Source: a virus (taxonomy: Duplodnaviria; Heunggongvirae; Uroviricota; Caudoviricetes). Taken from it: a stretch of DNA of 64,000 bases. The notes below the pieces were generated by a model that had not been told where the DNA came from, searched no databases, and saw only the letters and a program-made list of their open reading frames with translations. Shown here piece after piece: positions 5,628 to 40,569 of this stretch. A program made the position numbers and the translations under genes. The number at the start of each line of letters is the position of its first letter. Within the stretch, counting starts at the first letter, position 1. The stretch lies in the IMG/VR virus record IMGVR_UViG_3300028833_000055, positions 46,446-110,445 of that record. One strand, written 5' to 3'.

Positions 5628-5665
5628 ATCTTATTTAATTTATAACATACTGTATTAAATATAAC

Positions 5666-5696
5666 AAAAAAGGCGAACCATTGATTCGCCTTTTTT
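5666..5696. terminator. intrinsic terminator overlapping a TTTTGTTATATTTA motif (5656-5669)
   Basis: aaaaaaggcgaa...ttcgcctttttt. Confidence 0.75.
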
Positions 5697-5713
5697 GAAA
5701 ATTAACCATCTCA

Positions 5714-7516
5714 TTATTCTTTCAATGCAGAAACTTTTGTAATTATAACATCTTTTATTCCCACAACTTCTTTCAAAAGTGAAATTTCCTTTGGAAGGTC
5801 ACCCGTCCTAACATCCTCATCCTTTTCATAAAAAATAAAAGCACAAATATCTTTAATATGACGTGGACAAATTTCAACAAGTCTAGTTGGCGGGTTTGAG
5901 TTACCATAAAATGTCCAATATCCGTCACCAAATATGAATATTACTGCATCTTTATCTTTTGATTTTATTCTATTTATTTCATTACCAACATCACTGAAAT
6001 TCTCGATGCCACCACCAATATAACCTCTTTGACTATTAAAATATTCCAATGTATTTGCCAACACTTTTTCATAACCGTCTTCTTCTAACATCTTATGATT
6101 AATAATTCTCGGTAACGATAAATTATCACCAAATACATAGGTGCAGATGTCGGTATATTCAAGTCTAAAACACAAATGTAATATTCTACCTAAAAATGCA
6201 ACGATAAGACCAGGTTGTGAAGCGACAGAACCGGAATAGTCAACAAAGCAATAAATTGATTGTGTTTCAGCACCGCCCTTTTCATATTTTTTAAAATATC
6301 TCACATCTCTTCTCCACAAATGATTCTTATCACCCAATCTTACTTTTTTTACCTTCTCGTCTTCAATCTCACCCTTGTGTATAGATTTATCTTTAAGTAT
6401 TTTTTCCACAAGTTTTTCCCAATCATCATCTTCTATTTTAGCGGCTTTCAAAGAATGATATAATATAGATGTTTTTAGTGATGAGTATCCTTTACATTTT
6501 TTATCCAGTTCAACCATCGCCTCCCTTCTTATGGAATCCAATTCTGAATCTGACGGTGGTTCTGCGGAAAGAGCACCTTCCACGGTTGATTCTTTCATTC
6601 TTTTTATTTCTTCAGGAGAAAGTTTTGCCGCTTCTATTTCTTTTTCAATTTCTTCTTTCGATGGTGCAGTTTCAAGTCTTCCAGCCAACGATTTTAATTT
6701 GTCAAATTTTTCCTTTTTTCTTGATTTATCACCGATAATTTCTTCTTCTTTCCTTTCTATATCATCAACAGTACTATTATCGTCTTTAAGTGCTTCAATA
6801 AGGTCTTTTAAATCTTCTTTTTCTATATCCGTTCTTTCTTTCAATTTTTCCAAAGCATCTCCGATGGAACGTTCAAGTTCACTTTTCTTTTTCTCACTAT
6901 CGACATCATCTTCTCCACTACCCCATTCAGTTTCAGTATCTTCTTTTTTCATTTTTTTTCTTGATGATTTTTTTGATTCATCATCATCTGTTGAATCATC
7001 ATCAATATCACTAGATTCGTCGTCTCCATCACCGTCACCAGAACCTTCTCCACCTTCCGAAGCACTACTAACACTTTTTTTTGATTTGTCTAAAAAGTCA
7101 TCATAGTCATCACCGGTTTTATAGTCGGAATCACCATCATCTTCAATCTCATCTAGTGCTTCCGCCTCCAATTCGAGTCTTTTAATAAATTCATCCTCAC
7201 CCCATTCAATTTCTTCACTTTCCCAATCTTTTTTTGCGTCTTTACTATCATCAAAAATTGGCAAACGTCTTCTTATGATAGGAGGAAGTGGTGGCTCTGG
7301 TGGTAAAATTCTTGGGTCTTCCGAATCTTCATCGGAATCATCATCACTCCCACCATTATCCAAAAGTTGTGACTTAACATAATTCCTAACATAAATTATC
7401 GCTTGTTCTGCGGTTTCCATATCTTTGGAAATAGGAACATCAGAATAAGAGACTTCGGTCTCTTTTGATTCCTGTATAGAATTTAACAATACATCTAATT
7501 CTTCAAATATATTCAT
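5714..7516 (-). CDS. vWA-like (MIDAS) domain protein with long acidic low-complexity N-terminal half (DUF2201 C-terminal-like)
   Basis: CFVDYSGSV (DxSxS) and IFIFGDGY in the C-terminal domain. Confidence 0.7.
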   Translation of the reverse strand: MNIFEELDVLLNSIQESKETEVSYSDVPISKDMETAEQAIIYVRNYVKSQLLDNGGSDDDSDEDSEDPRILPPEPPLPPIIRRRLPIFDDSKDAKKDWESEEIEWGEDEFIKRLELEAEALDEIEDDGDSDYKTGDDYDDFLDKSKKSVSSASEGGEGSGDGDGDDESSDIDDDSTDDDESKKSSRKKMKKEDTETEWGSGEDDVDSEKKKSELERSIGDALEKLKERTDIEKEDLKDLIEALKDDNSTVDDIERKEEEIIGDKSRKKEKFDKLKSLAGRLETAPSKEEIEKEIEAAKLSPEEIKRMKESTVEGALSAEPPSDSELDSIRREAMVELDKKCKGYSSLKTSILYHSLKAAKIEDDDWEKLVEKILKDKSIHKGEIEDEKVKKVRLGDKNHLWRRDVRYFKKYEKGGAETQSIYCFVDYSGSVASQPGLIVAFLGRILHLCFRLEYTDICTYVFGDNLSLPRIINHKMLEEDGYEKVLANTLEYFNSQRGYIGGGIENFSDVGNEINRIKSKDKDAVIFIFGDGYWTFYGNSNPPTRLVEICPRHIKDICAFIFYEKDEDVRTGDLPKEISLLKEVVGIKDVIITKVSALKE

Positions 7517-7543
7517 ATTAAAATATTTTTTATTTAATTATGT

Positions 7544-9415
7544 TTAATCTTCTGTCGGTAATTTGAATTCTCGTCTAAGACCTTTTTCACCTAATTCTTC
7601 ATATATTTTGTATAATCTTTTATACTCTTCATAATATGCTTTTTTATACTCCTCTGAAGGTCTTACTTTCGCTTGTCTATGAAATTCTGTTCCGATTCTT
7701 CTTAAAGAAGAAAGTGCAATTTTAACAACACTTACATATTCTGTTTCCGTGTGTTCTTCTTTTAAAAAGTCAAACATATGTGTCGTATCCTCATAGAACG
7801 CATCAACCAAACCTGTAAAAAAACGGTCATCTCTGTCAATAAGTATCTTCTCTTCTCTCAATCTTTTCAAATTTTCAAAGAACGATTCTTTTAATTTTCC
7901 TATCACCACATAAATTTCAGTCAAATCACTTTCATTAATATCGTGTATTTCTTTTTCCAATAGAGGTTTTACCAAATCTGCATATTCATTACACAACTCA
8001 AATGACTTTTCATCCAACCTTTCGTGATAATAAATGGCCGCCATATCTTTTATTCTTAAATAGTAATTGTGAAGAATATGTTTTTTTCTTTTTTCTTCTC
8101 TAAGTTTTTCCGCTCTTTTTTTACGCCTCTCTTTCAATTCCTTCATCTTTCTCTCAAACTCTTCCTTTAACTTATCCTTTTTCAGATTATCGGCAATAAG
8201 TTTACTGATAGAATATATGATTTTTTCGGATATTTCATCCCTTTCGTCATAAGTTAATTTGGTTTCTCTATTCAAACGAACAACACCATCAACCAAAGTA
8301 GTCCAACATTCTTCATTGTCCTTTAAAAAGACATCTTCATCCAAAGTAAATTTCTCACTGATTTTTGTAACACATCTCTCCATTTCTTTTTTTAATGTGT
8401 CAACATCATCAATAAAACCATTAAGGTCACTACTTGTCATATTAACGGGACTTACATCAAGGTCATCTATAACTTTTTTCAAATACGGTCCAATTTCACC
8501 AATTTCTTTTATTCGTGTTTTTTGGAGCATTTTAAGTCTCTTTCTTATTGTCATTTTTGTTTTACTTTCACCAAAAAGTTTTTCAATAATGTCTCTAAGT
8601 TTTGTGGAGGCAATATCTTTATCTCTTTCTGTGGAATTTGGGTCACGAAGTACTTTTAATGCTTCAAAAATTGCCTTCAGCGCCTCTAAATATTCCGGTG
8701 GTAAAACTGTACCACCGTTAGATAAATATCTTTTTAATAGTTCATCACCATTTTCTCTATATATGTCCTCATACATTTTTCCAAAGTAATCTTTATCGAA
8801 TACGCCTTTCATTTCTTTCCAGAAATCTGCTGTTACAACACCATCGGCAACCATATTGCAGTTTACTTCCATATCTGCACATATATTTTGTTTGGTTATT
8901 TCCAACTCATATAATTCTTCACTTGTCATTTTCAATTTTCGTCTATCTTCCATAGGTAAAATTTTTAGACCTATTGATAAATGATTCAGAAAATTATGCA
9001 TCAACTCGTGGAATAAAATACCAAAGATTTTTTTTACATCACAATCCAAATTATTGTATATAAAATGTACATTTAACCACAAATTACCAAGATTATCCAC
9101 AGACATTGTTTTATGAAAACAATTTTTATCTTCGGGATTCGCTAAAACATACATTGGTCTACAATGTTGAATATATGAATACATAAAACTATACTTACTT
9201 CCAATTAGTCCAAGCGCTTTATCCACAGACTGTATTATCGTTTTTAATTCAACATCAACAATTTTATCCAAAGACTCTACATACATTGGAATTTTACCAA
9301 CCCTTAAAGTTGCCAATTTGTTTCCTGCCGATTTATCTGTTACCGATTCAATCAGTCTATATCCTTGCTTGTTTCTGATATTGTATCTATCATATATCAA
9401 ATCATTATATACCAT
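7544..9415 (-). CDS. putative HEXXH metallopeptidase (DUF2201_N-like) with helical C-terminus
   Basis: KTMSVD..LWLN..F, ILFHELMHNFLNH, NICADMEVN. Confidence 0.75.
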   Translation of the reverse strand: MVYNDLIYDRYNIRNKQGYRLIESVTDKSAGNKLATLRVGKIPMYVESLDKIVDVELKTIIQSVDKALGLIGSKYSFMYSYIQHCRPMYVLANPEDKNCFHKTMSVDNLGNLWLNVHFIYNNLDCDVKKIFGILFHELMHNFLNHLSIGLKILPMEDRRKLKMTSEELYELEITKQNICADMEVNCNMVADGVVTADFWKEMKGVFDKDYFGKMYEDIYRENGDELLKRYLSNGGTVLPPEYLEALKAIFEALKVLRDPNSTERDKDIASTKLRDIIEKLFGESKTKMTIRKRLKMLQKTRIKEIGEIGPYLKKVIDDLDVSPVNMTSSDLNGFIDDVDTLKKEMERCVTKISEKFTLDEDVFLKDNEECWTTLVDGVVRLNRETKLTYDERDEISEKIIYSISKLIADNLKKDKLKEEFERKMKELKERRKKRAEKLREEKRKKHILHNYYLRIKDMAAIYYHERLDEKSFELCNEYADLVKPLLEKEIHDINESDLTEIYVVIGKLKESFFENLKRLREEKILIDRDDRFFTGLVDAFYEDTTHMFDFLKEEHTETEYVSVVKIALSSLRRIGTEFHRQAKVRPSEEYKKAYYEEYKRLYKIYEELGEKGLRREFKLPTED

Positions 9416-9441
9416 AAGATATTATTTTATATATATTTATT

Positions 9442-9521
9442 TGGGATTATCTACTTTTTGTTATTATACTGCAAAGATACTATTTTTTTGGAATTTTTGC
9501 AAGTTTAAGTAGATAATTCCA
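9442..9521. repeat. 15-bp inverted repeat (one mismatch) enclosing a Bacteroidota-type promoter
   Basis: tgggattatctactt (9442-9456) versus aagtagataattcca (9507-9521). Confidence 0.8.
9472..9502 (-). promoter_or_regulatory. Bacteroidota sigma-A-type promoter (TTG-N20-TATCTTTG)
   Basis: Matches the -33 TTG / -7 TAnnTTTG consensus; the 16-mer AAAAATAGTATCTTTG also occurs at 33629-33644 (minus) and 53156-53171 (plus). Confidence 0.75.
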
Positions 9522-9525
9522 TATT

Positions 9526-9533
9526 TATTTATG
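9526..9533 (-). promoter_or_regulatory. late-type promoter CATAAATA
   Basis: Recurrent motif, one base from T4 late TATAAATA. Confidence 0.6.
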
Positions 9534-9569
9534 AAAAAAAAAAGTGTCAGATTACTGACACTTTTTTTT
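9534..9569. terminator. intrinsic terminator
   Basis: A-tract gtgtcag-atta-ctgacac T-tract. Confidence 0.8.
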
Positions 9570-9575
9570 CATTTT

Positions 9576-12542
9576 TTAATTCATATCTGCATAATCAATA
9601 TCATAAGTTTCACCAACAAAATTGATATAATCAGCCAAATTCTGTCTTATCGGTTCATCTTCGGGATATTCTTCACTTCTTATTTTAAGAATATTGGACA
9701 CAATATCAGTATGAAGTTTTATCAAATGGTCCGAACTCAGTTCACCATATGCTTTGTCAAGGTTTTTCGCCATTTGTAAAAACATTTCACCTATTTCCGG
9801 TGTTCCTTTTGCAACAGTACTTCTTTTGTATTTTGACATAATGTAGTTTTCAACAGACTTCACTGCTTCCGTAACGTGATATACGGTCGTGTCTATATCT
9901 ACCGGACCTTCAAATAAAGATTTTGTCGAAGGTCTAGATGAACCAAGTTTCCTGATTCTATCCATATAAGTACAATATTCATCGGCTATCGGTAATCCAA
10001 TTGTTGCAATGGCTTGTTTTTTCAATAAACCTGGGTCAATTTCAAGAATACTATCCAAATCAAATTTGACAAGCATATCGTGAACCCAAGACATTAAATT
10101 TGACCAAGAACGTGGTGATGCAAAAATCATTTTATTTTCCGAACCAAGTTCGTGGAACTTTTCTGGGTCTAAATCGTGCCACCTTCTATATACTCTTGTT
10201 TTACTTAATCTACCTTTTTTACCGATTGTTTCTACATCTTCAAAATTGTCTGGTGAATCGAATGAAATAAATTGCAATGTATCTTCATCAAAATAACCAC
10301 TTTCTCTTGCCCATTTAGACCAAACTGCAAAATCTGGAACAAAATTAAATGCACCACCAGATATTCTGTTACCAAACGCTGGAGCAAGTTTTGCAAAACG
10401 CTTTTTAACTTCATCGTCATCACAAGGTCTATTTGAACAAGCTATAATAGACCACTTTGAACCAATTCTATATCCACCAGAAGTTTGTCTTTTTGTTATT
10501 AACTGCATAATTGTTTTGAACAATTCGTCATCAGCACGTAAAAATTCATCAAACATTATTATACCGCCTTCATAAGTTGCTTCATCAACCGGTTCAAATT
10601 CTTCAAATGCATCATTCCAAACCATATCCTCAACATAATATGTATTGGCATATAAGTTTTTTGCTCTATTGACTTTTATATCGGTACTTGGTTTATAAAC
10701 AGGAAGCCAAGTTTTTGGAGATTCTTCTGTTTGTAGAATACGAACTTTTTCCAAATTTGCAATGTCTGTACTATCAAAACCTAATTCCACCAATTTTTTA
10801 GCAAGACCACTTTTCTCTCCTATAACTTTATCCATAGTTGTATCATCTGGCATAGGAAGATAAAGACCACCTAATTCCAAATCACCACATTCAATAACAA
10901 TAACCGATTTCTTTTTATTTGGATTCGACTTATTGTATTCTTTAATGATTTCTTGAGGTATTGTTGTCTTACCAATACCCGGTGCTCCAAAAATAAATGT
11001 TGCTCTTGAAGATTTTCTACCTGTTGTGGAAGGATTATCTTCCATAATGGATTTCACCATTGTTTCAAAATCTTCACTTGAAATATCTGGAATATTATCA
11101 AGAAAACTTCCCTTTGCCGAAAGAGGAACTCTTGCTTCTTCTACCGCACTAAGTTTATATCCATCATCAAACGCCAAATCTGGATTTGCCATCATATCAA
11201 TCCATTTCAAAAAGTTTTTATATTCTTGTGATTTTTTGTCGATAAAATCATAAAAACCTTTTTTCTTATCGAGATATGCGGTTGATTCAACATTTTTATT
11301 AAGTAATGGTGAATCAATCTTTGTGAATGCACTAACACCTTTCACATTACCTCCGGCAAGATAATTAAGTGTCGTATAGACATTGGTCTCATCTTTCATT
11401 TCACCATCTTTTGTGAAAGTTGCAACATAGAAGTTATTGAGTTTTATCATAAAAGAATTTATCTTCTGTTTAATTTTCTTAACACCTCTCTTCACACCGC
11501 TTTTAATGGTGTCATATAGACCTTCGTTTACAAATTCGTCTATTGTTAAAACGTGTTTATTTTCTTTCATAGTTTTTGTTTTTGTTTTTTTATCCAATTC
11601 ATCGAGTTCTTTTAATTTTTTTAAAATTCTTTCATTTTTTGTTGCGTTTATATCAACAAGACGAGCACCTATTTTTGGTAACTCTGCACTTTCCCATCTT
11701 TTGACAACTCTATGTCTTCCGGTCTCAACACCAGTTTTAGGGTCAATCTCGGGTTCTATTTTTGCATGTCCACGTTCGTCAAATACTGTTACGAGAACTT
11801 TACCGGGATTCCATCCGGAAATATCGTGTGAAAACCTAGATTCGGTAAACATATTTTTAAAATTTATACACGAACTAACATCCCAATTTTCTATTGATGG
11901 ATTGTCGAATGTTGATTTATAAAACATACCTTCCATATTCTTGACATTAGAAACATCCCAACTAGATAAATCCAAATTAGGAATGTTTGCAAATGCAAAC
12001 AATGCCGCCATATTCTCAACATTGGATGTATCAAGAAGACAAATCATAGGATTTGTTTGTTCGTTTTCTTTATTGTCTTCAGAAATACATCTATTATACC
12101 AGGCATTTACAACAACGAATATATTATGTTCATAATCCTTACCATTATTTACATAATATCTTCCCCTTATCTTGGAGACTATTTCCTTTTCTTCACTAGA
12201 TGGAACAAGAGTAACTGGTTCTGGTTCAATTTCCAAATCGTCGTCTACTTCAAACCCTTCTCCCTCATCATCGTCATCGTCGATTTCATCACCGGTTTTA
12301 TCGTCAATTTCATCTTTTACTTTTTCGATTCCTGGTTCTTTTTTAACGACTTTCATCCCCTCATCCAATTTACAATATTCACTTAAATCTATAGACTCAT
12401 TTAATTCTATAAGATTTTCGTTTTTTTCGAACCATTCATCAAACATCAGAAGAAACTCTTTATTACTAAGGTTAGGATATTTTTTATTTGTTTCGTTAAC
12501 CCAATTCCTAACATCTTTACTGAAAAATTGTTCTTTTGTCAT
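9576..12542 (-). CDS. MoxR/AAA_5-like AAA+ ATPase with N-terminal acidic region and DUF285 repeats
   Basis: GAPGIGKT, IIMFDEFLRA, ACSNRP, LAPAFGNR, SPRSW; LSSWDVSNVKNMEGMF repeats in the N-terminal third. Confidence 0.8.
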   Translation of the reverse strand: MTKEQFFSKDVRNWVNETNKKYPNLSNKEFLLMFDEWFEKNENLIELNESIDLSEYCKLDEGMKVVKKEPGIEKVKDEIDDKTGDEIDDDDDEGEGFEVDDDLEIEPEPVTLVPSSEEKEIVSKIRGRYYVNNGKDYEHNIFVVVNAWYNRCISEDNKENEQTNPMICLLDTSNVENMAALFAFANIPNLDLSSWDVSNVKNMEGMFYKSTFDNPSIENWDVSSCINFKNMFTESRFSHDISGWNPGKVLVTVFDERGHAKIEPEIDPKTGVETGRHRVVKRWESAELPKIGARLVDINATKNERILKKLKELDELDKKTKTKTMKENKHVLTIDEFVNEGLYDTIKSGVKRGVKKIKQKINSFMIKLNNFYVATFTKDGEMKDETNVYTTLNYLAGGNVKGVSAFTKIDSPLLNKNVESTAYLDKKKGFYDFIDKKSQEYKNFLKWIDMMANPDLAFDDGYKLSAVEEARVPLSAKGSFLDNIPDISSEDFETMVKSIMEDNPSTTGRKSSRATFIFGAPGIGKTTIPQEIIKEYNKSNPNKKKSVIVIECGDLELGGLYLPMPDDTTMDKVIGEKSGLAKKLVELGFDSTDIANLEKVRILQTEESPKTWLPVYKPSTDIKVNRAKNLYANTYYVEDMVWNDAFEEFEPVDEATYEGGIIMFDEFLRADDELFKTIMQLITKRQTSGGYRIGSKWSIIACSNRPCDDDEVKKRFAKLAPAFGNRISGGAFNFVPDFAVWSKWARESGYFDEDTLQFISFDSPDNFEDVETIGKKGRLSKTRVYRRWHDLDPEKFHELGSENKMIFASPRSWSNLMSWVHDMLVKFDLDSILEIDPGLLKKQAIATIGLPIADEYCTYMDRIRKLGSSRPSTKSLFEGPVDIDTTVYHVTEAVKSVENYIMSKYKRSTVAKGTPEIGEMFLQMAKNLDKAYGELSSDHLIKLHTDIVSNILKIRSEEYPEDEPIRQNLADYINFVGETYDIDYADMN

Positions 12543-12555
12543 ATATTAAAATTTT

Positions 12556-14568
12556 TTATTTATCTCTTGTTGCATCAATCTTCATATTTCCGAGAATTTT
12601 TTCTCTCCATCTTTTTTGTCCAAAGAACAAATATTCCCTGATATTTTTAATGATACCCCAATTCATCAATCCATATATCTCGTATTCGGTATTATAGTTA
12701 CCCTCTATAACATCATCAATCATATTCAAAACTTCTTCTAGATTATAATCTGGAATTGAAGATTCTGTTGGTAAAAGTTTTAAATCATTTGGTATACTTT
12801 CATCGTTCATATCACTAACGATTTTTCTTCTTAACCAATACCAGACAACTTTTCTTGTAGGACTGATGTCTATTGGTTCCATTCTCCTTTGTAAAGCACC
12901 CCAGTGGTCTTTTGCAGTTTTTATAAATGTTGTTAATGTCTGATTAGATATATATACGATAATACCATTAAAATAGAATCCGTCCGGTATCAAGACTTTT
13001 GCATTTTCTTCTTCAAATTTTTCAAAGTCTCTTAATGCAGTTTCTTTGACACTCTCGTCACTTATCATCGCTTCCCATTCTGGAGATGTTCTTGAAAGTT
13101 TTTCTTTTTTTCTATAATAATCACGAATTTCACTCTCTTTCTTTTTTAACCATCTTTCCTTTTCATATGGTGTAAATTTACCAACTTCTCTGAAATATGA
13201 TTCTTGTCTTGTTACATCGGCCTTCTGTGCGGCATAATATATATCACTTTTTCCTCTAACTTCACCATCGGGTGATACAATCCAGCGTTTCTTTTCTTCT
13301 GCCTCCATTGCACCTTTCCACAAAGAAATTTTCGATTCTGTATTGAACATTTCTGGTGTATCATCATAAATCAGCAACATATTATTATTTTCGTACAATT
13401 CTTTATAGACCTCTCTTGCACTTGTAGTTGCATTACCCATCCTCTTATAATGAACACCGTTAATAAGACCCGTATCTACTATTGCCTTATCCAATGAATA
13501 AGATTTACCTATACCAGCGACACCTGTGATAAGTAAACCCCTATGTGTACCAATTTCTCTTCTAATCGAAATATCCCTACCACCACTCTTAATATATTTA
13601 CAAATCGCTTCCGATGCATCATAAACAGAGTCCATTTTTTCTTGTAATTCATCAACTCTTTTTTCCACAATGCCTTTGGCTTCTTTGACGACGTGTCCTC
13701 GTCCAGCTATAACTTCAACCGCTATTTCACCAGATGCACCAGCACCCCAGAACCAAAGGTTAGGTAATTTTGATGCGATTGCCGCTGGCGCATCACCAAC
13801 ATTACCACATATAACAAAATGTATAAAGACAACAAATCTCATTGCCGATACATAGTCGATTGTTCCATCGTGTTTTTTACCAATAACCGCTCTTACCGTT
13901 TCAAGATATTCATCATCCTCTTCCAAATCTTGAATCTTTAAAACGATTTCATTATCCGTTTTATCATTATAATTTTTAATAAATTCTTCCATAAGGTCTT
14001 GGTTGAACTTATCGACAGAAGCAGAATCATCATAAAGATTTTTATAAATCTTTTGCCAAGCTATTGCTTTATATGGTACGGGTGCCGTAACCTCTTCATT
14101 TAAACCAGCATTCGTATTATCAAGAGTTAAAATGGAAATCAATGTACTCACAGCTTTTGTTATTCCGAACTTACTTGTTGAAACGGAAAATTCAGACTTT
14201 AAGTCTGGAAAATCTGCTGGATTTTTTGTAAAAAATGTAATAACTTTATTGATACCTTCTTTATATATAGCAAAATATTTAGTACCGCTTTCAGAAGAAA
14301 TCAACGAACAGTCTTTACCGTCAATTTTGAAAACAAAAGGAGAAACCAAAAAATTATCATTTATATTTTTTCTTAAATTATTAAGTACAAGAAGTGTCAT
14401 TTTTGAAAGAATTTTGTTATCATAAACCATTTCCAAATCTGGTTCACCATAAGTTTCCAATTCTTTCTGTTCCACTGAATCAAGAACAACATCGTTTCCA
14501 AAACTTTCGTTGCTCTCCATAATTCTGGAAGTTCCTCTATTCAAAAAACTGTTAAAACTTTCAATCAT
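12556..14568 (-). CDS. P-loop AAA-like ATPase with unknown N-terminal domain
   Basis: LLITGVAGIGKS, LLIYDD, IVYISN, ALQRR; start moved to MIESF (14568) because the ATG at 14592 abuts the promoter motif. Confidence 0.7.
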   Translation of the reverse strand: MIESFNSFLNRGTSRIMESNESFGNDVVLDSVEQKELETYGEPDLEMVYDNKILSKMTLLVLNNLRKNINDNFLVSPFVFKIDGKDCSLISSESGTKYFAIYKEGINKVITFFTKNPADFPDLKSEFSVSTSKFGITKAVSTLISILTLDNTNAGLNEEVTAPVPYKAIAWQKIYKNLYDDSASVDKFNQDLMEEFIKNYNDKTDNEIVLKIQDLEEDDEYLETVRAVIGKKHDGTIDYVSAMRFVVFIHFVICGNVGDAPAAIASKLPNLWFWGAGASGEIAVEVIAGRGHVVKEAKGIVEKRVDELQEKMDSVYDASEAICKYIKSGGRDISIRREIGTHRGLLITGVAGIGKSYSLDKAIVDTGLINGVHYKRMGNATTSAREVYKELYENNNMLLIYDDTPEMFNTESKISLWKGAMEAEEKKRWIVSPDGEVRGKSDIYYAAQKADVTRQESYFREVGKFTPYEKERWLKKKESEIRDYYRKKEKLSRTSPEWEAMISDESVKETALRDFEKFEEENAKVLIPDGFYFNGIIVYISNQTLTTFIKTAKDHWGALQRRMEPIDISPTRKVVWYWLRRKIVSDMNDESIPNDLKLLPTESSIPDYNLEEVLNMIDDVIEGNYNTEYEIYGLMNWGIIKNIREYLFFGQKRWREKILGNMKIDATRDK

Positions 14569-14595
14569 ATTTTTATGTTTTATTTTATACATAAT

Positions 14596-14603
14596 TATTT
14601 ATG
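14596..14603 (-). promoter_or_regulatory. late-type promoter CATAAATA
   Basis: Recurrent motif directly upstream of the ATPase pair. Confidence 0.6.
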
Positions 14604-38093: not shown

Positions 38094-39446
38094 TTATGAT
38101 TTTATTTTCCTTTTCAGTTCATAGAGGTCTTCTAGATACATTTCCTTCGTATCTTTCCTTGAATACTCGTCTATCTGCTCCTTTTTCACCTTCGTCTTGT
38201 TCAGCAGTTCATCATACTTCTCCTTTGTAAGAGAATGAATGGGCATATTCAGAAGATAACTGTAACTTCCATCCATCCTGTCGAACTTGTTTTCGTCCAG
38301 CCAAGATACGATTTCATCCTTCGGTACATTGTTCACCACAAGTTTCCTGCTTATTATCGCCTTTATGAACTTCGCCCTCATAATCATCTCGTTGAGTTCT
38401 TCCGTCCATTTTCCAATCAGATAATCCTTCCTCTTCTGGTAGTATCCCATCCTGAAATCCACGAAATAGACAAGCATATCCTCCACACAGTCGAACACTT
38501 TCAGTTTCTCGTTCTCGTCTATCGTGGTGAGGTTTTCCGTAACGGAATCGTTTATCTTCAAAAGTTTTTCAAGTTTCTCCTTGTCTGAAATGATTTTATC
38601 GAACTCATCCTTCTTGAACTTCAACAGATAGTCGATATTTGACGATGAATTGTTGTCATAGTCACGGAGTATCTTTCCATCCACAAGAGAGTCAAGATAC
38701 GCCTCATATTTTTCAAAAGTCATATCCGGCGGAAGTTCCGTGATGTGGATTTCCGGTTTTGTATTCGAAATCTCATATTTTCCGTGAATATACCATTTCT
38801 TCTTGTTGTCTGCATCACGAACCCATTCACCGGAAAATTCCGACAACCAAGGTTTCAATTCCTTCACCTTCTTTCCCTCGATGTGGTTGATACAGTTGTC
38901 GATGACATCCTTCGGATTACGGTTGAGAATATTTGAAGCGAAACCGACAGCGATACCGGAAGAACCGTTCAGTATGATTGTCGGTACTATCGGAAGAAAA
39001 TACTTCGGTTCAATCTCGACACCTTCGTCAATCTGATTCTCGAGTAATTCGAAATCCTTGTAAAGGTTTCTGAAATTCTGTGATAATTTTGTTGATATGT
39101 AACGGGGAGCACCGGCTTCCGGTGAACGAAGTGTTCCGTATTGTCCGATACCGTCGAGAAGTGGAAGGGAATTCTTGAAAGTTTGTCCCATACCAGTCAC
39201 AACTTGGTTGGCGGAAGCGTCACCGTGATGATAGTAAGCGTCGGCAGCCATCTTACCGACAAACTGGAACACCTTCATCGGTTTCTCGCTTCCTGTCTTC
39301 CATATCTTATCGGCAATGTATACGACCTTTCTTGCAGTAGGTTTCAGACCGTCTATCACAGAAGGGATTGCACGGTTCTCAACCACATCCATTGCATATT
39401 CCTTTACCTCTGTATTGAGGAAATCTGTTATGTTTTTAGTTCTCAT
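38094..39446 (-). CDS. gp52: type II DNA topoisomerase, GyrA/ParC-like subunit (T4 gp52-like)
   Basis: RAIPSVIDGLKP, YHHGDAS, AGAPRY (catalytic Tyr), NGSSGIAVGF. Confidence 0.95.
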   Translation of the reverse strand: MRTKNITDFLNTEVKEYAMDVVENRAIPSVIDGLKPTARKVVYIADKIWKTGSEKPMKVFQFVGKMAADAYYHHGDASANQVVTGMGQTFKNSLPLLDGIGQYGTLRSPEAGAPRYISTKLSQNFRNLYKDFELLENQIDEGVEIEPKYFLPIVPTIILNGSSGIAVGFASNILNRNPKDVIDNCINHIEGKKVKELKPWLSEFSGEWVRDADNKKKWYIHGKYEISNTKPEIHITELPPDMTFEKYEAYLDSLVDGKILRDYDNNSSSNIDYLLKFKKDEFDKIISDKEKLEKLLKINDSVTENLTTIDENEKLKVFDCVEDMLVYFVDFRMGYYQKRKDYLIGKWTEELNEMIMRAKFIKAIISRKLVVNNVPKDEIVSWLDENKFDRMDGSYSYLLNMPIHSLTKEKYDELLNKTKVKKEQIDEYSRKDTKEMYLEDLYELKRKIKS

Positions 39447-40569
39447 TTAATTTACATTTTAGAGCACTTATACAATCTTCTAATTTTATTGAATAAATCT
39501 GTAAGTAATTTAAGTTGTTTTCTTTTGCAGTTTTAATTTTTCTAACATCCAAATTCGTCCAAACATCTATCGCTTTATCATAATACTTACCATTTTTTGA
39601 TTTCCATACATTCAATTTCTCAATATCTTCTTTTGAATTTTTATCAAATGGATGTTTACCGTGTGTCCAAGAACCATTTATTTCAATATATAAATCATAT
39701 TTTGGTAAATAAAAATCACAAGAAAATGGATAAACATCAGATTTATATTGTCTTATATAATCAATATTATTTTTGGTAAGATATTCGGAAAACAACTCTT
39801 CTATTTTTGATGTTGAGAATGTTTTTTTATCAACCAATGTATTCAACCTTTTATTGAATATTTCGTTATTTTGAAGAGCGTTTTCACACCCATATTTTTC
39901 TTCCATTATTTGCTTAAATTTATCGGAATGTAAAAATGATTTATTACCATATTTTTTCAAACAAGTTTCCATTTGTTTTTTCTTAGAAATATCTGATTGT
40001 GCATTACTCTCACACCCAAATCTTCTTAAACATGTATCTTTTCTTTTTTGTGTCTGTTCTTTTGTTTCATACAACCCACCATTGTTTCTTCTTCTTGTTT
40101 CTGTCATTTTATCCCTAACTTCTTTTCTCTGTGATGAATTTCTTACACCATATAATTTCATATTCGTTTCAAAATTTTTCTGTGGGTTGTTGTAATTTTT
40201 ATCACCATACCTTTGTTCTTTTGTAATTGTTGATTTTATGTATATATTTTTTCTATCTTTCAAATCACATTCCTTTGAACAATATGTAGAATATCCTGTT
40301 GAAAAAGAATCAAATTTACATCTATTTCCACAAATGGGACATTTACCAAAAAGTAAATTCTCATCGTTTTGTAAAAAATGCCACAATAATTGTCTAAATG
40401 GTAATTCTTCTTTAAAAGAAACTAATTTAAAATCCAAATATAAAACATGGAATATTTTTGAAAATTTAGACTCTCTTACGATAGGATTTTGCTTTGTTGA
40501 ATATCTCTTCAAATATTCAAAAACTTCTTTTTTAGAAGTAATGTTGATTTCATCAATTTCCATAAACAC
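39436..40569 (-). CDS. free-standing putative homing endonuclease (Vsr/DUF559-like PD-(D/E)XK domain, Zn motif, KYG repeats)
   Basis: CPICGN..YCSKEC, TCLKKYG-type repeats, CDFYLPKYDLYIEINGSWTHG; very AT-rich and inserted between topoisomerase genes. Confidence 0.7.
   Translation of the reverse strand: MFMEIDEINITSKKEVFEYLKRYSTKQNPIVRESKFSKIFHVLYLDFKLVSFKEELPFRQLLWHFLQNDENLLFGKCPICGNRCKFDSFSTGYSTYCSKECDLKDRKNIYIKSTITKEQRYGDKNYNNPQKNFETNMKLYGVRNSSQRKEVRDKMTETRRRNNGGLYETKEQTQKRKDTCLRRFGCESNAQSDISKKKQMETCLKKYGNKSFLHSDKFKQIMEEKYGCENALQNNEIFNKRLNTLVDKKTFSTSKIEELFSEYLTKNNIDYIRQYKSDVYPFSCDFYLPKYDLYIEINGSWTHGKHPFDKNSKEDIEKLNVWKSKNGKYYDKAIDVWTNLDVRKIKTAKENNLNYLQIYSIKLEDCISALKCKLNEN

Follow-up and report, generated by a model that had tools for sequence, protein, structure and literature searches.

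Within a 64,000-nucleotide (nt) stretch of the IMG/VR virus record IMGVR_UViG_3300028833_000055 (the window; the source record is a 363,334-bp giant phage from the rumen with a completeness rating of 96%), four large consecutive genes, here called P0001 to P0004, encode an expanded MoxR/DUF2201 module, an identification that we regard as secure. In this module the peptidase (P0003) and the von Willebrand factor A (vWA) protein (P0004) are split between two genes, the MoxR-like ATPase (P0002) is fused to DUF285 repeats, and a further AAA+ ATPase (P0001) has been added. Based on motifs in these proteins and in front of their genes, the module is probably a duplicated and enlarged chaperone-protease pair that is expressed late, delivered to the prohead core, and trimmed there by the phage's own protease.

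The original prediction had described a P-loop ATPase, a MoxR-like ATPase with DUF285 repeats, an HEXXH protein, and a vWA protein with a metal ion-dependent adhesion site (MIDAS) and an acidic linker, encoded by four co-oriented genes. All four open reading frames (ORFs) indeed lie on the minus strand, and the assignments were confirmed, apart from one MIDAS position of the fourth. P0002 begins with a conserved 50-amino-acid (aa) region ending in LNE/S (here and below, a slash marks the putative cut), followed by an acidic stretch, the DUF285 repeats, an internal leader, and the ATPase, with Walker A GAPGIGKT, Walker B IIMFDEF, and sensor residues N704/R705. Its residues G519-K525, D665/E666, N704/R705, and R726 are invariant across 24 sequences. 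The Pfam AAA_5 profile (PF07728) gave a borderline score for P0002 itself, 21.5 bits with a gathering cut-off of 22, and 28.2 bits for the ATPase of a paralogous pair; it was also found in many relatives of P0002, two of which bear the Joint Genome Institute name MoxR-like. The vWA partner of P0002, P0004, is encoded two genes downstream, and a DUF2201_N peptidase gene adjoins the ATPase gene in nearly every locus examined. The ATPase part matched 193 proteins at E <= 0.001, and DUF285 was present in nearly all of the 120 listed ATPase matches, several of them on contigs of 250-390 kb. A viral scan with P0002 as a single-protein query returned DUF285 repeats only.

P0003 consists of an N-terminal RLIE/S site and a zincin domain (HELMHNFLNH, DMEVN), followed by a long helical tail rich in K and E. 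Residues E23, H136, E137, H140, H145, D181, and E183 are invariant in its family, 13 of whose 14 members matched Pfam DUF2201_N (PF13203); P0003 itself did not at an E value of 0.1. The hidden Markov model (HMM) of the P0003 family retrieved canonical DUF2201 proteins in two other loci (L022, L025). The vWA-like domain of DUF2201 proteins (PF09967) is not in the P0003 chain and was located in the separate protein P0004, which comprises a leader-like MNIFEELDVLLNSIQE/S, a long acidic linker, a helical region, and the C-terminal vWA domain. Against the PDB, Foldseek gave 222 matches to this domain at E <= 1e-3, and the top ones listed were almost all vWA/MIDAS domains. PDB sequence profiles yielded only generic AAA+ matches and weak vWA matches. 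The DxSxS motif of the MIDAS (FVDYSGS; aa 426-430, with D426, S428, and S430) and D531 are invariant, but the MIDAS Thr position is occupied by Ile in P0004 and by Ser or Thr in some orthologues.

In the structural model of P0001, a small N-terminal domain (aa 60-156) and a disordered stretch (aa 158-290) precede a confident C-terminal domain whose structure matches are AAA+ modules found in dynein, McrB, Rpt, and p97; its Walker A motif is GVAGIGKS and its Walker B motif LLIYDD. The ATPase core (aa 303-436) matched phrog_1250 and, in 797 T4-like records, the NrdC.10 gene. This gene (for example in Edwardsiella phage PEi26, L047) is conserved in T4-like phages, and many records label its product 'thioredoxin'. 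Since all orthologues of P0001 begin at M9, and since the motif CATAAATA then lies at its usual spacing, 28 nt upstream, the true start is most likely the ATG at 14568 and not the one at 14592.

The prediction had also called the module 'split and expanded', which the comparison of loci supports. The four-gene order is kept in seven viral loci (L002-L007 and L013), at 25-44% identity. Relatives closer than these, at 65-98% identity, exist as well. One lineage has the module without P0001: in L050 (5306-13901), the same SbcC-like gene as here is followed directly by CATAAATA and P0002-P0004, so the extra AAA+ protein must be dispensable or encoded elsewhere. Two loci (L008, L052) encode a P0001-like protein, a P0002-like protein, and a fused peptidase-vWA protein, a third (L009) has the peptidase-vWA protein split at a different place, and in a fourth (L010) DUF285 is encoded as a separate gene. 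A second, unsplit form is present in the same genome at 209263-213940 (L031:4264-8941), as well as in three of the five relatives checked. It has two genes, for a fused DUF2201_N-vWA protein (781 aa; generally ∼770 aa) and then an ATPase (764 aa; generally ∼720 aa). A 513-aa SPFH/Band 7 protein with a flotillin domain is encoded ∼2 kb upstream of this pair (L031:669-2210, minus strand). The C terminus of P0004 and the C-terminal vWA part of the fused paralogue are homologous (hhalign probability 98.6%, E = 5e-16). Small phage pairs, in which an ATPase of ∼340 aa stands beside a 389-aa DUF2201_N+DUF2201 protein, are canonical representatives of this family.

The argument for head targeting rests on the T4 precedent. 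Internal proteins of T4 enter the prohead core via a 10-residue capsid targeting sequence (CTS), MKTYQEFIAE; its residues 4 and 7 are important for targeting, and residues 8 and 10 for the cut that gp21 makes after Glu. The rule on which the prediction had relied, cleavage after (I/L)xE, is the known one: after Glu, with Leu or Ile at P3. The phage studied here encodes a T4 gp23-like major capsid protein (MCP; PF07068, 100.8 bits, above cut-off) and a gp21-type Peptidase_S77 prohead protease (PF03420, 41.7 bits, above cut-off), along with a tail sheath and replication genes like those of T4. It also has a family of N termini with T4-CTS spacing, among them MGYIKKYEEFINE/A, MKILDYIEYINE/A, and, on a scaffold-like gene product encoded next to the MCP, MIKNFEEFINE/N. 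A simple leader pattern, shaped with knowledge of the target proteins, matched 20 of 385 N termini, compared to 4.3 ± 2.2 in shuffles. We replaced this target-shaped regular expression by a position-specific scoring matrix (PSSM) trained without the four target proteins. Nineteen N termini scored at least 10, where 0.8 would be expected on the basis of internal windows; 15 of these 19 are the matrix's own training sequences and four are independent proteins, followed by P0001 with its leader MIESFNSFL..IME/S at 9.6 (rank 21 of 385). Internal matches scoring at least 11 were rare, eight in 108 kaa (thousand amino acids), and a site in the C-terminal region of the prohead protease is among them.

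Conservation of the sites among relatives points in the same direction. An orthologue of P0001 begins MIKKFDEFINE/A, and E166 (long numbering) in the GLNE/E site of P0001, at the boundary of domain and disorder in the model, is invariant. In P0002, an (I/L)NE/S site near residue 47 is mostly conserved, and the internal leader, which scored 14-22 in most orthologues, sits at the DUF285/ATPase junction and aligns with the N terminus of the stand-alone paralogous ATPase (the paralogues align from residue ∼329). Residue 23 of P0003 and residue 16 of P0004 are invariant Glu residues of an LNE/S-type site across all relatives. An invariant Glu in an h-x-E-small context (h, hydrophobic) is found in all four module families, and the MCP has a QLNE/S site at residue 50 that is conserved among its own relatives. 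Every peptide string quoted in the prediction is present in the proteins; as conserved sites, GLNEE of P0001 and RLIES of P0003 proved to contain an invariant Glu, but KLDEG is not conserved. Both proteins of the two-gene paralogue carry leaders, and in the fused protein, besides the one at the N terminus, a second, LKTFEEFINE/S (aa 302, PSSM 22.4), separates the peptidase from the linker-vWA part; the architecture of P0004 is that of the part downstream of this site. Among large-phage loci, [LIVMF]NE[SAGDN] occurred within the first 60 aa of 43 of the 58 system proteins and of 8 of the 184 flanking proteins, counts compared by Fisher test over proteins that are homologous and hence non-independent; most system proteins without the strict site had a relaxed h-x-E-[SA]. 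By contrast, the small canonical DUF2201 pairs and, likewise, gp212/213 of Serratia phage BF lack such N termini.

Two further proteins of the phage carry leader-like sites. The prohead protease ORF (window 62024-64042, minus strand; ∼670-680 aa) has an N-terminal S77 domain and a long tail, and LKSYSNYISE/G at aa 473 in its C-terminal region (PSSM 13.4) suggests C-terminal self-processing, as known for such proteases. A 639-aa protein (L037; genome 240354-242273, minus strand) combines the canonical leader MRLIPSFNEYIRE/N with C-terminal DUF285-type repeats, so that DUF285 is linked to a head-address leader a second time.

Given the CTS-like leaders and h-x-E/small sites on the proteins, recruitment into the prohead and trimming there are the most likely explanation. 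According to this reading, the four proteins would be made late and would enter the prohead core via the T4-CTS-like leaders or gp21-type sites; the gp21-type protease would then trim them after Glu, with the cut at VLTIDEFVNE/G freeing the DUF285 part from the P0002 ATPase, and the enzyme bodies would stay intact inside the head. By analogy with what is known of these families, the vWA protein may serve as an adaptor by which a protein substrate is delivered to the AAA+ ring, and the zincin would cut this substrate. A different cutter could also be imagined: P0003 itself, and not the gp21-type protease, might cleave h-N-E/S, making the module a second maturation protease system for a giant head. 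The invariant active-site residues of P0003 are compatible with this, as is the proposal that extra zincins of jumbo phages possibly process virion proteins (in the portion of PMC7824862 dealing with them). However, the motif fits the gp21 rule, it is found in the MCP and in the tail of the prohead protease as well, and T4, which has no DUF2201 protein, follows this rule too; together these points make P0003 a very improbable author of the cuts.

Alternatively, the module could be an unpackaged virion-assembly chaperone of the cytoplasm, involved in the folding or processing of structural proteins, its N-terminal motifs being pro-sequences lost in passing or having another role. A role in virion assembly has indeed been proposed for the pair in the relevant part of PMC7824862, the leader-less homologues in Serratia phage BF adjoin virion genes (without a structural annotation of their own), and both the wide distribution of the family among phages of many sizes and its long-term conservation would suit a core function. 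Such a chaperone nevertheless leaves unexplained why every component gained a leader or cut site in this clade only, why canonical leaders lie exactly at the fusion junctions, and why orthologues of P0001 start with a perfect MIKKFDEFINE/A, and we therefore consider it unlikely. Under the preferred prohead reading, the gain of head-address or cut-site motifs by nearly every component of the clade, together with the fusion and splitting of leader-bearing genes at protease sites, suggests a simple route by which T4-like giant phages could add large enzymes to their heads.

The timing of expression was assessed from the sequences upstream of the genes. As predicted, each gene pair is headed by CATAAATA (Table 1). 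The T4 late promoter is TATAAATA, a box lying ∼20-30 nt before late genes, which CATAAATA resembles. Genome-wide, 64 of the 81 copies of CATAAATA are located <=60 nt upstream of a co-oriented ATG. Within the window, it precedes the genes for the adaptor, a fibre-like protein, the sheath, the MCP, and the prohead protease, and is missing upstream of those for the methylase, SbcC-like, Lon-like, clamp-loader, topoisomerase, and polymerase-exonuclease proteins. The claim that the motif stands before capsid, sheath, and tube genes thus stood for the first two but was not confirmed for the third, since no family matched the putative 'tube' gene that follows the sheath gene. Nearly all P0001 orthologues have a motif 24-33 nt upstream, CATAAATA in seven of seven close loci and exact TATAAATA in its place in L008 and L009; CATAAATA also precedes six of seven P0003 orthologues, and in relatives a motif of this type precedes both genes of the two-gene paralogue. 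Because CATAAATA is conserved and similar to the T4 late promoter, late expression is a reasonable inference, and the module is likely expressed late.

The region upstream of P0003 adds a complication. The motif is 111 nt away from the P0003 start, since a host-type promoter flanked by inverted repeats lies in between. This segment of ∼80 nt carries a predicted promoter TTG..N20..TATCTTTG (TTG..TAnnTTTG) of the Bacteroidota type, so that P0003-P0004 may also be transcribed by the host polymerase. The spacer between P0002 and P0003 measures 160 nt here versus 63-88 nt in relatives, the arms of the repeat were found nowhere else in the genome, and a metagenome scan revealed no close relative covering the spacer. 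The segment could be an inserted or invertible promoter.

Several observations weigh against late expression and packaging of the module in the head. The predicted host-type promoter before P0003 is probably an early one, and the neighbourhood of the module consists of replication and repair genes. The prediction that the proteins are loaded into the head and matured there is in line with the gp21-type protease, the CTS-like leaders of P0001 and P0002, and the conserved h-x-E/S sites, but the canonical leader PSSM does not recognize P0003 or P0004, which have the short h-x-E-S site only. The pair in other phages is leader-less and not annotated as structural, and the Fisher counts are affected by the homology mentioned above. 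P0001 is absent from the L050 lineage, and its Walker B motif reads DD rather than DE. Finally, megablast and tblastn searches of the phage collection found no close cultured relative, and the best tblastn matches of the ATPases were Lak phages, with 22-28% identity over part of the protein only.

The machine may work at the prohead stage, in clearing or maturing core proteins. This role is slightly favoured over ejection because the module is deeply conserved, and it is in line with the assembly role proposed by Iyer et al. in the part of PMC7824862 devoted to the pair and with the virion-resident MoxR protein of Acidianus two-tailed virus. Activity after ejection into the next host, conceivable by analogy with the T4 internal proteins (IPs) and Alt, appears doubtful. 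In its effector form, which we likewise rate as unlikely, this alternative holds that the processed proteins travel with the DNA and dismantle a host defence or other complex, with DUF285 as the target binder. T4 proteins with a single CTS cut (IPs, Alt) do remain in the head and are ejected, the enzyme bodies are free of further strict cut sites, and the duplication and added domains (DUF285, extra AAA+) are reminiscent of conflict systems. A role inside the prohead would, however, suit the data as well as the predicted injection to disable host defence or help ejection. Large ATPases would have to unfold, traverse the tail, refold, and assemble into rings, and the deep conservation of synteny is unlike that of fast-evolving counter-defence genes. 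Moreover, a search with PADLOC models gave a single chance-level match (mad8, E = 0.013) and no defence or counter-defence family; an NCBIfam search gave nothing useful. The fullest version, in which the head would release its processed ATPases, zincin, and vWA adaptor together with the DNA as an ATP-driven unfoldase-protease that dismantles a host protein complex when infection begins, seems distinctly unlikely; if true, the module would be the first known case of an AAA+ machine ejected by a phage. For the widespread phage MoxR/DUF2201 pair, this clade points to a testable place where it would act, inside the prohead or as ejected cargo.

The coordinates of the features are listed in Table 1. 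The gaps between P0001 and P0002 and between P0003 and P0004 are 13 nt and 27 nt, respectively. GC content across the module (window 6001-14000) is 0.30-0.33, compared to 0.40 for the genome. Elsewhere in the window, a homing-endonuclease-like gene (39436-40569, minus strand) lies between two genes for topoisomerase II subunits, with CATAAATA 57 nt upstream.

Table 1. Features of the four-gene module (window coordinates)
Feature	Position	Strand	Basis
P0001, AAA+ ATPase	12556..14568 (longest ORF start 14592)	-	Orthologue starts, AAA+ fold, phrog_1250 / T4 NrdC.10-like core
P0002, DUF285 + MoxR-like AAA_5 ATPase	9576..12542	-	PF03382, AAA_5, invariant columns
P0003, DUF2201_N HExxH zincin	7544..9415	-	Invariant residues, family Pfam matches
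P0004, acidic linker + vWA	5714..7516	-	AlphaFold model, Foldseek, hhalign
DUF285 (BspA/PARCEL-type) repeats of P0002, aa 161-249	11796..12062	-	PF03382, E 7.6e-18
Internal CTS-like leader VLTIDEFVNE/G of P0002, aa 331-341	11520..11552	-	PSSM 15.8
AAA+ core of P0002	10263..11015	-	Invariant columns, AAA_5, phrog_1297 ATPase
HExxH zinc-binding motif of P0003, aa 136-145	8981..9010	-	HELMHNFLNH, invariant residues
vWA domain of P0004, aa 419-600	5717..6262	-	AlphaFold predicted local distance difference test (pLDDT) ∼80, Foldseek
CATAAATA, late-promoter-like motif heading P0001-P0002, after hairpin ending SbcC-like gene	14596..14603	-	
CATAAATA motif heading P0003-P0004	9526..9533	-	
Bidirectional hairpin with T-runs ending P0001-P0002 unit	9536..9569	.	
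15-bp inverted repeats enclosing predicted Bacteroidota-type promoter aimed at P0003	9442..9521	-	
Intrinsic-terminator-like strong hairpin ending P0003-P0004 unit	5665..5697	-	

The core of the module, MoxR ATPase and peptidase-vWA protein, is the pair already described in group 2.2 (T4-like) jumbo phages, for which a virion-assembly role was proposed (Iyer et al. 2021, PMC7824862). Judged by the portion of PMC7824862 on this pair, the three domains, the adjacency of the genes, and the occurrence in large T4-like phages are the same, and the plain form is present in this genome, too. The module differs from the pair as presented there in having peptidase and vWA domains in separate genes, DUF285 fused to the ATPase, and an extra AAA+ gene; its components also bear CTS-like leaders or cut sites, of which that portion of the account makes no mention. 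PHROGs and phage records give the DUF2201-type peptidase beside the MoxR-like ATPase (Serratia phage BF gp213, L076; phrog_1314) the label 'HNH endonuclease', which looks like a carried-over misannotation. Staphylococcus phage DC4, in which an AAA ATPase that was seen in virions is encoded beside a DUF2201 protein, was rejected as support, because the virion detection consists of one peptide and the family HMMs do not link DC4 to the module. With T4 NrdC.10 (phrog_1250, function not assigned), P0001 shares the ATPase core, but it is twice as long and has a leader, an N-terminal domain, a disordered linker, and a tie to the MoxR module.

With the CTS/gp21 system of T4 (IPI-III, Alt), the phage has in common the gp21-type protease, the gp23-type capsid protein, and the layout of the leader, with aromatics at i and i+3, Ile or Val at i+4, and Glu at i+6, then a small residue. 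In contrast to the small basic proteins of T4, the candidate cargo consists of large ATP-driven enzymes; Asn is favoured at P2, and some leaders are internal. Acidianus two-tailed virus likewise encodes a viral MoxR-vWA pair (p618 and p892), whose ATPase is part of the virion and is proposed to remodel the particle. It differs in infecting archaea and in having neither a peptidase nor a head protease or leader. The cellular systems RavA-ViaA, CbbQ-CbbO, NorQ-NorD, BchI-BchD, and CobS-CobT lack a peptidase and a second AAA+ protein and act on metabolic enzymes, but like the module they combine an AAA_5 ATPase with a vWA partner, and the acidic linker before the vWA domain of BchD and CobT appears to resemble that of P0004.

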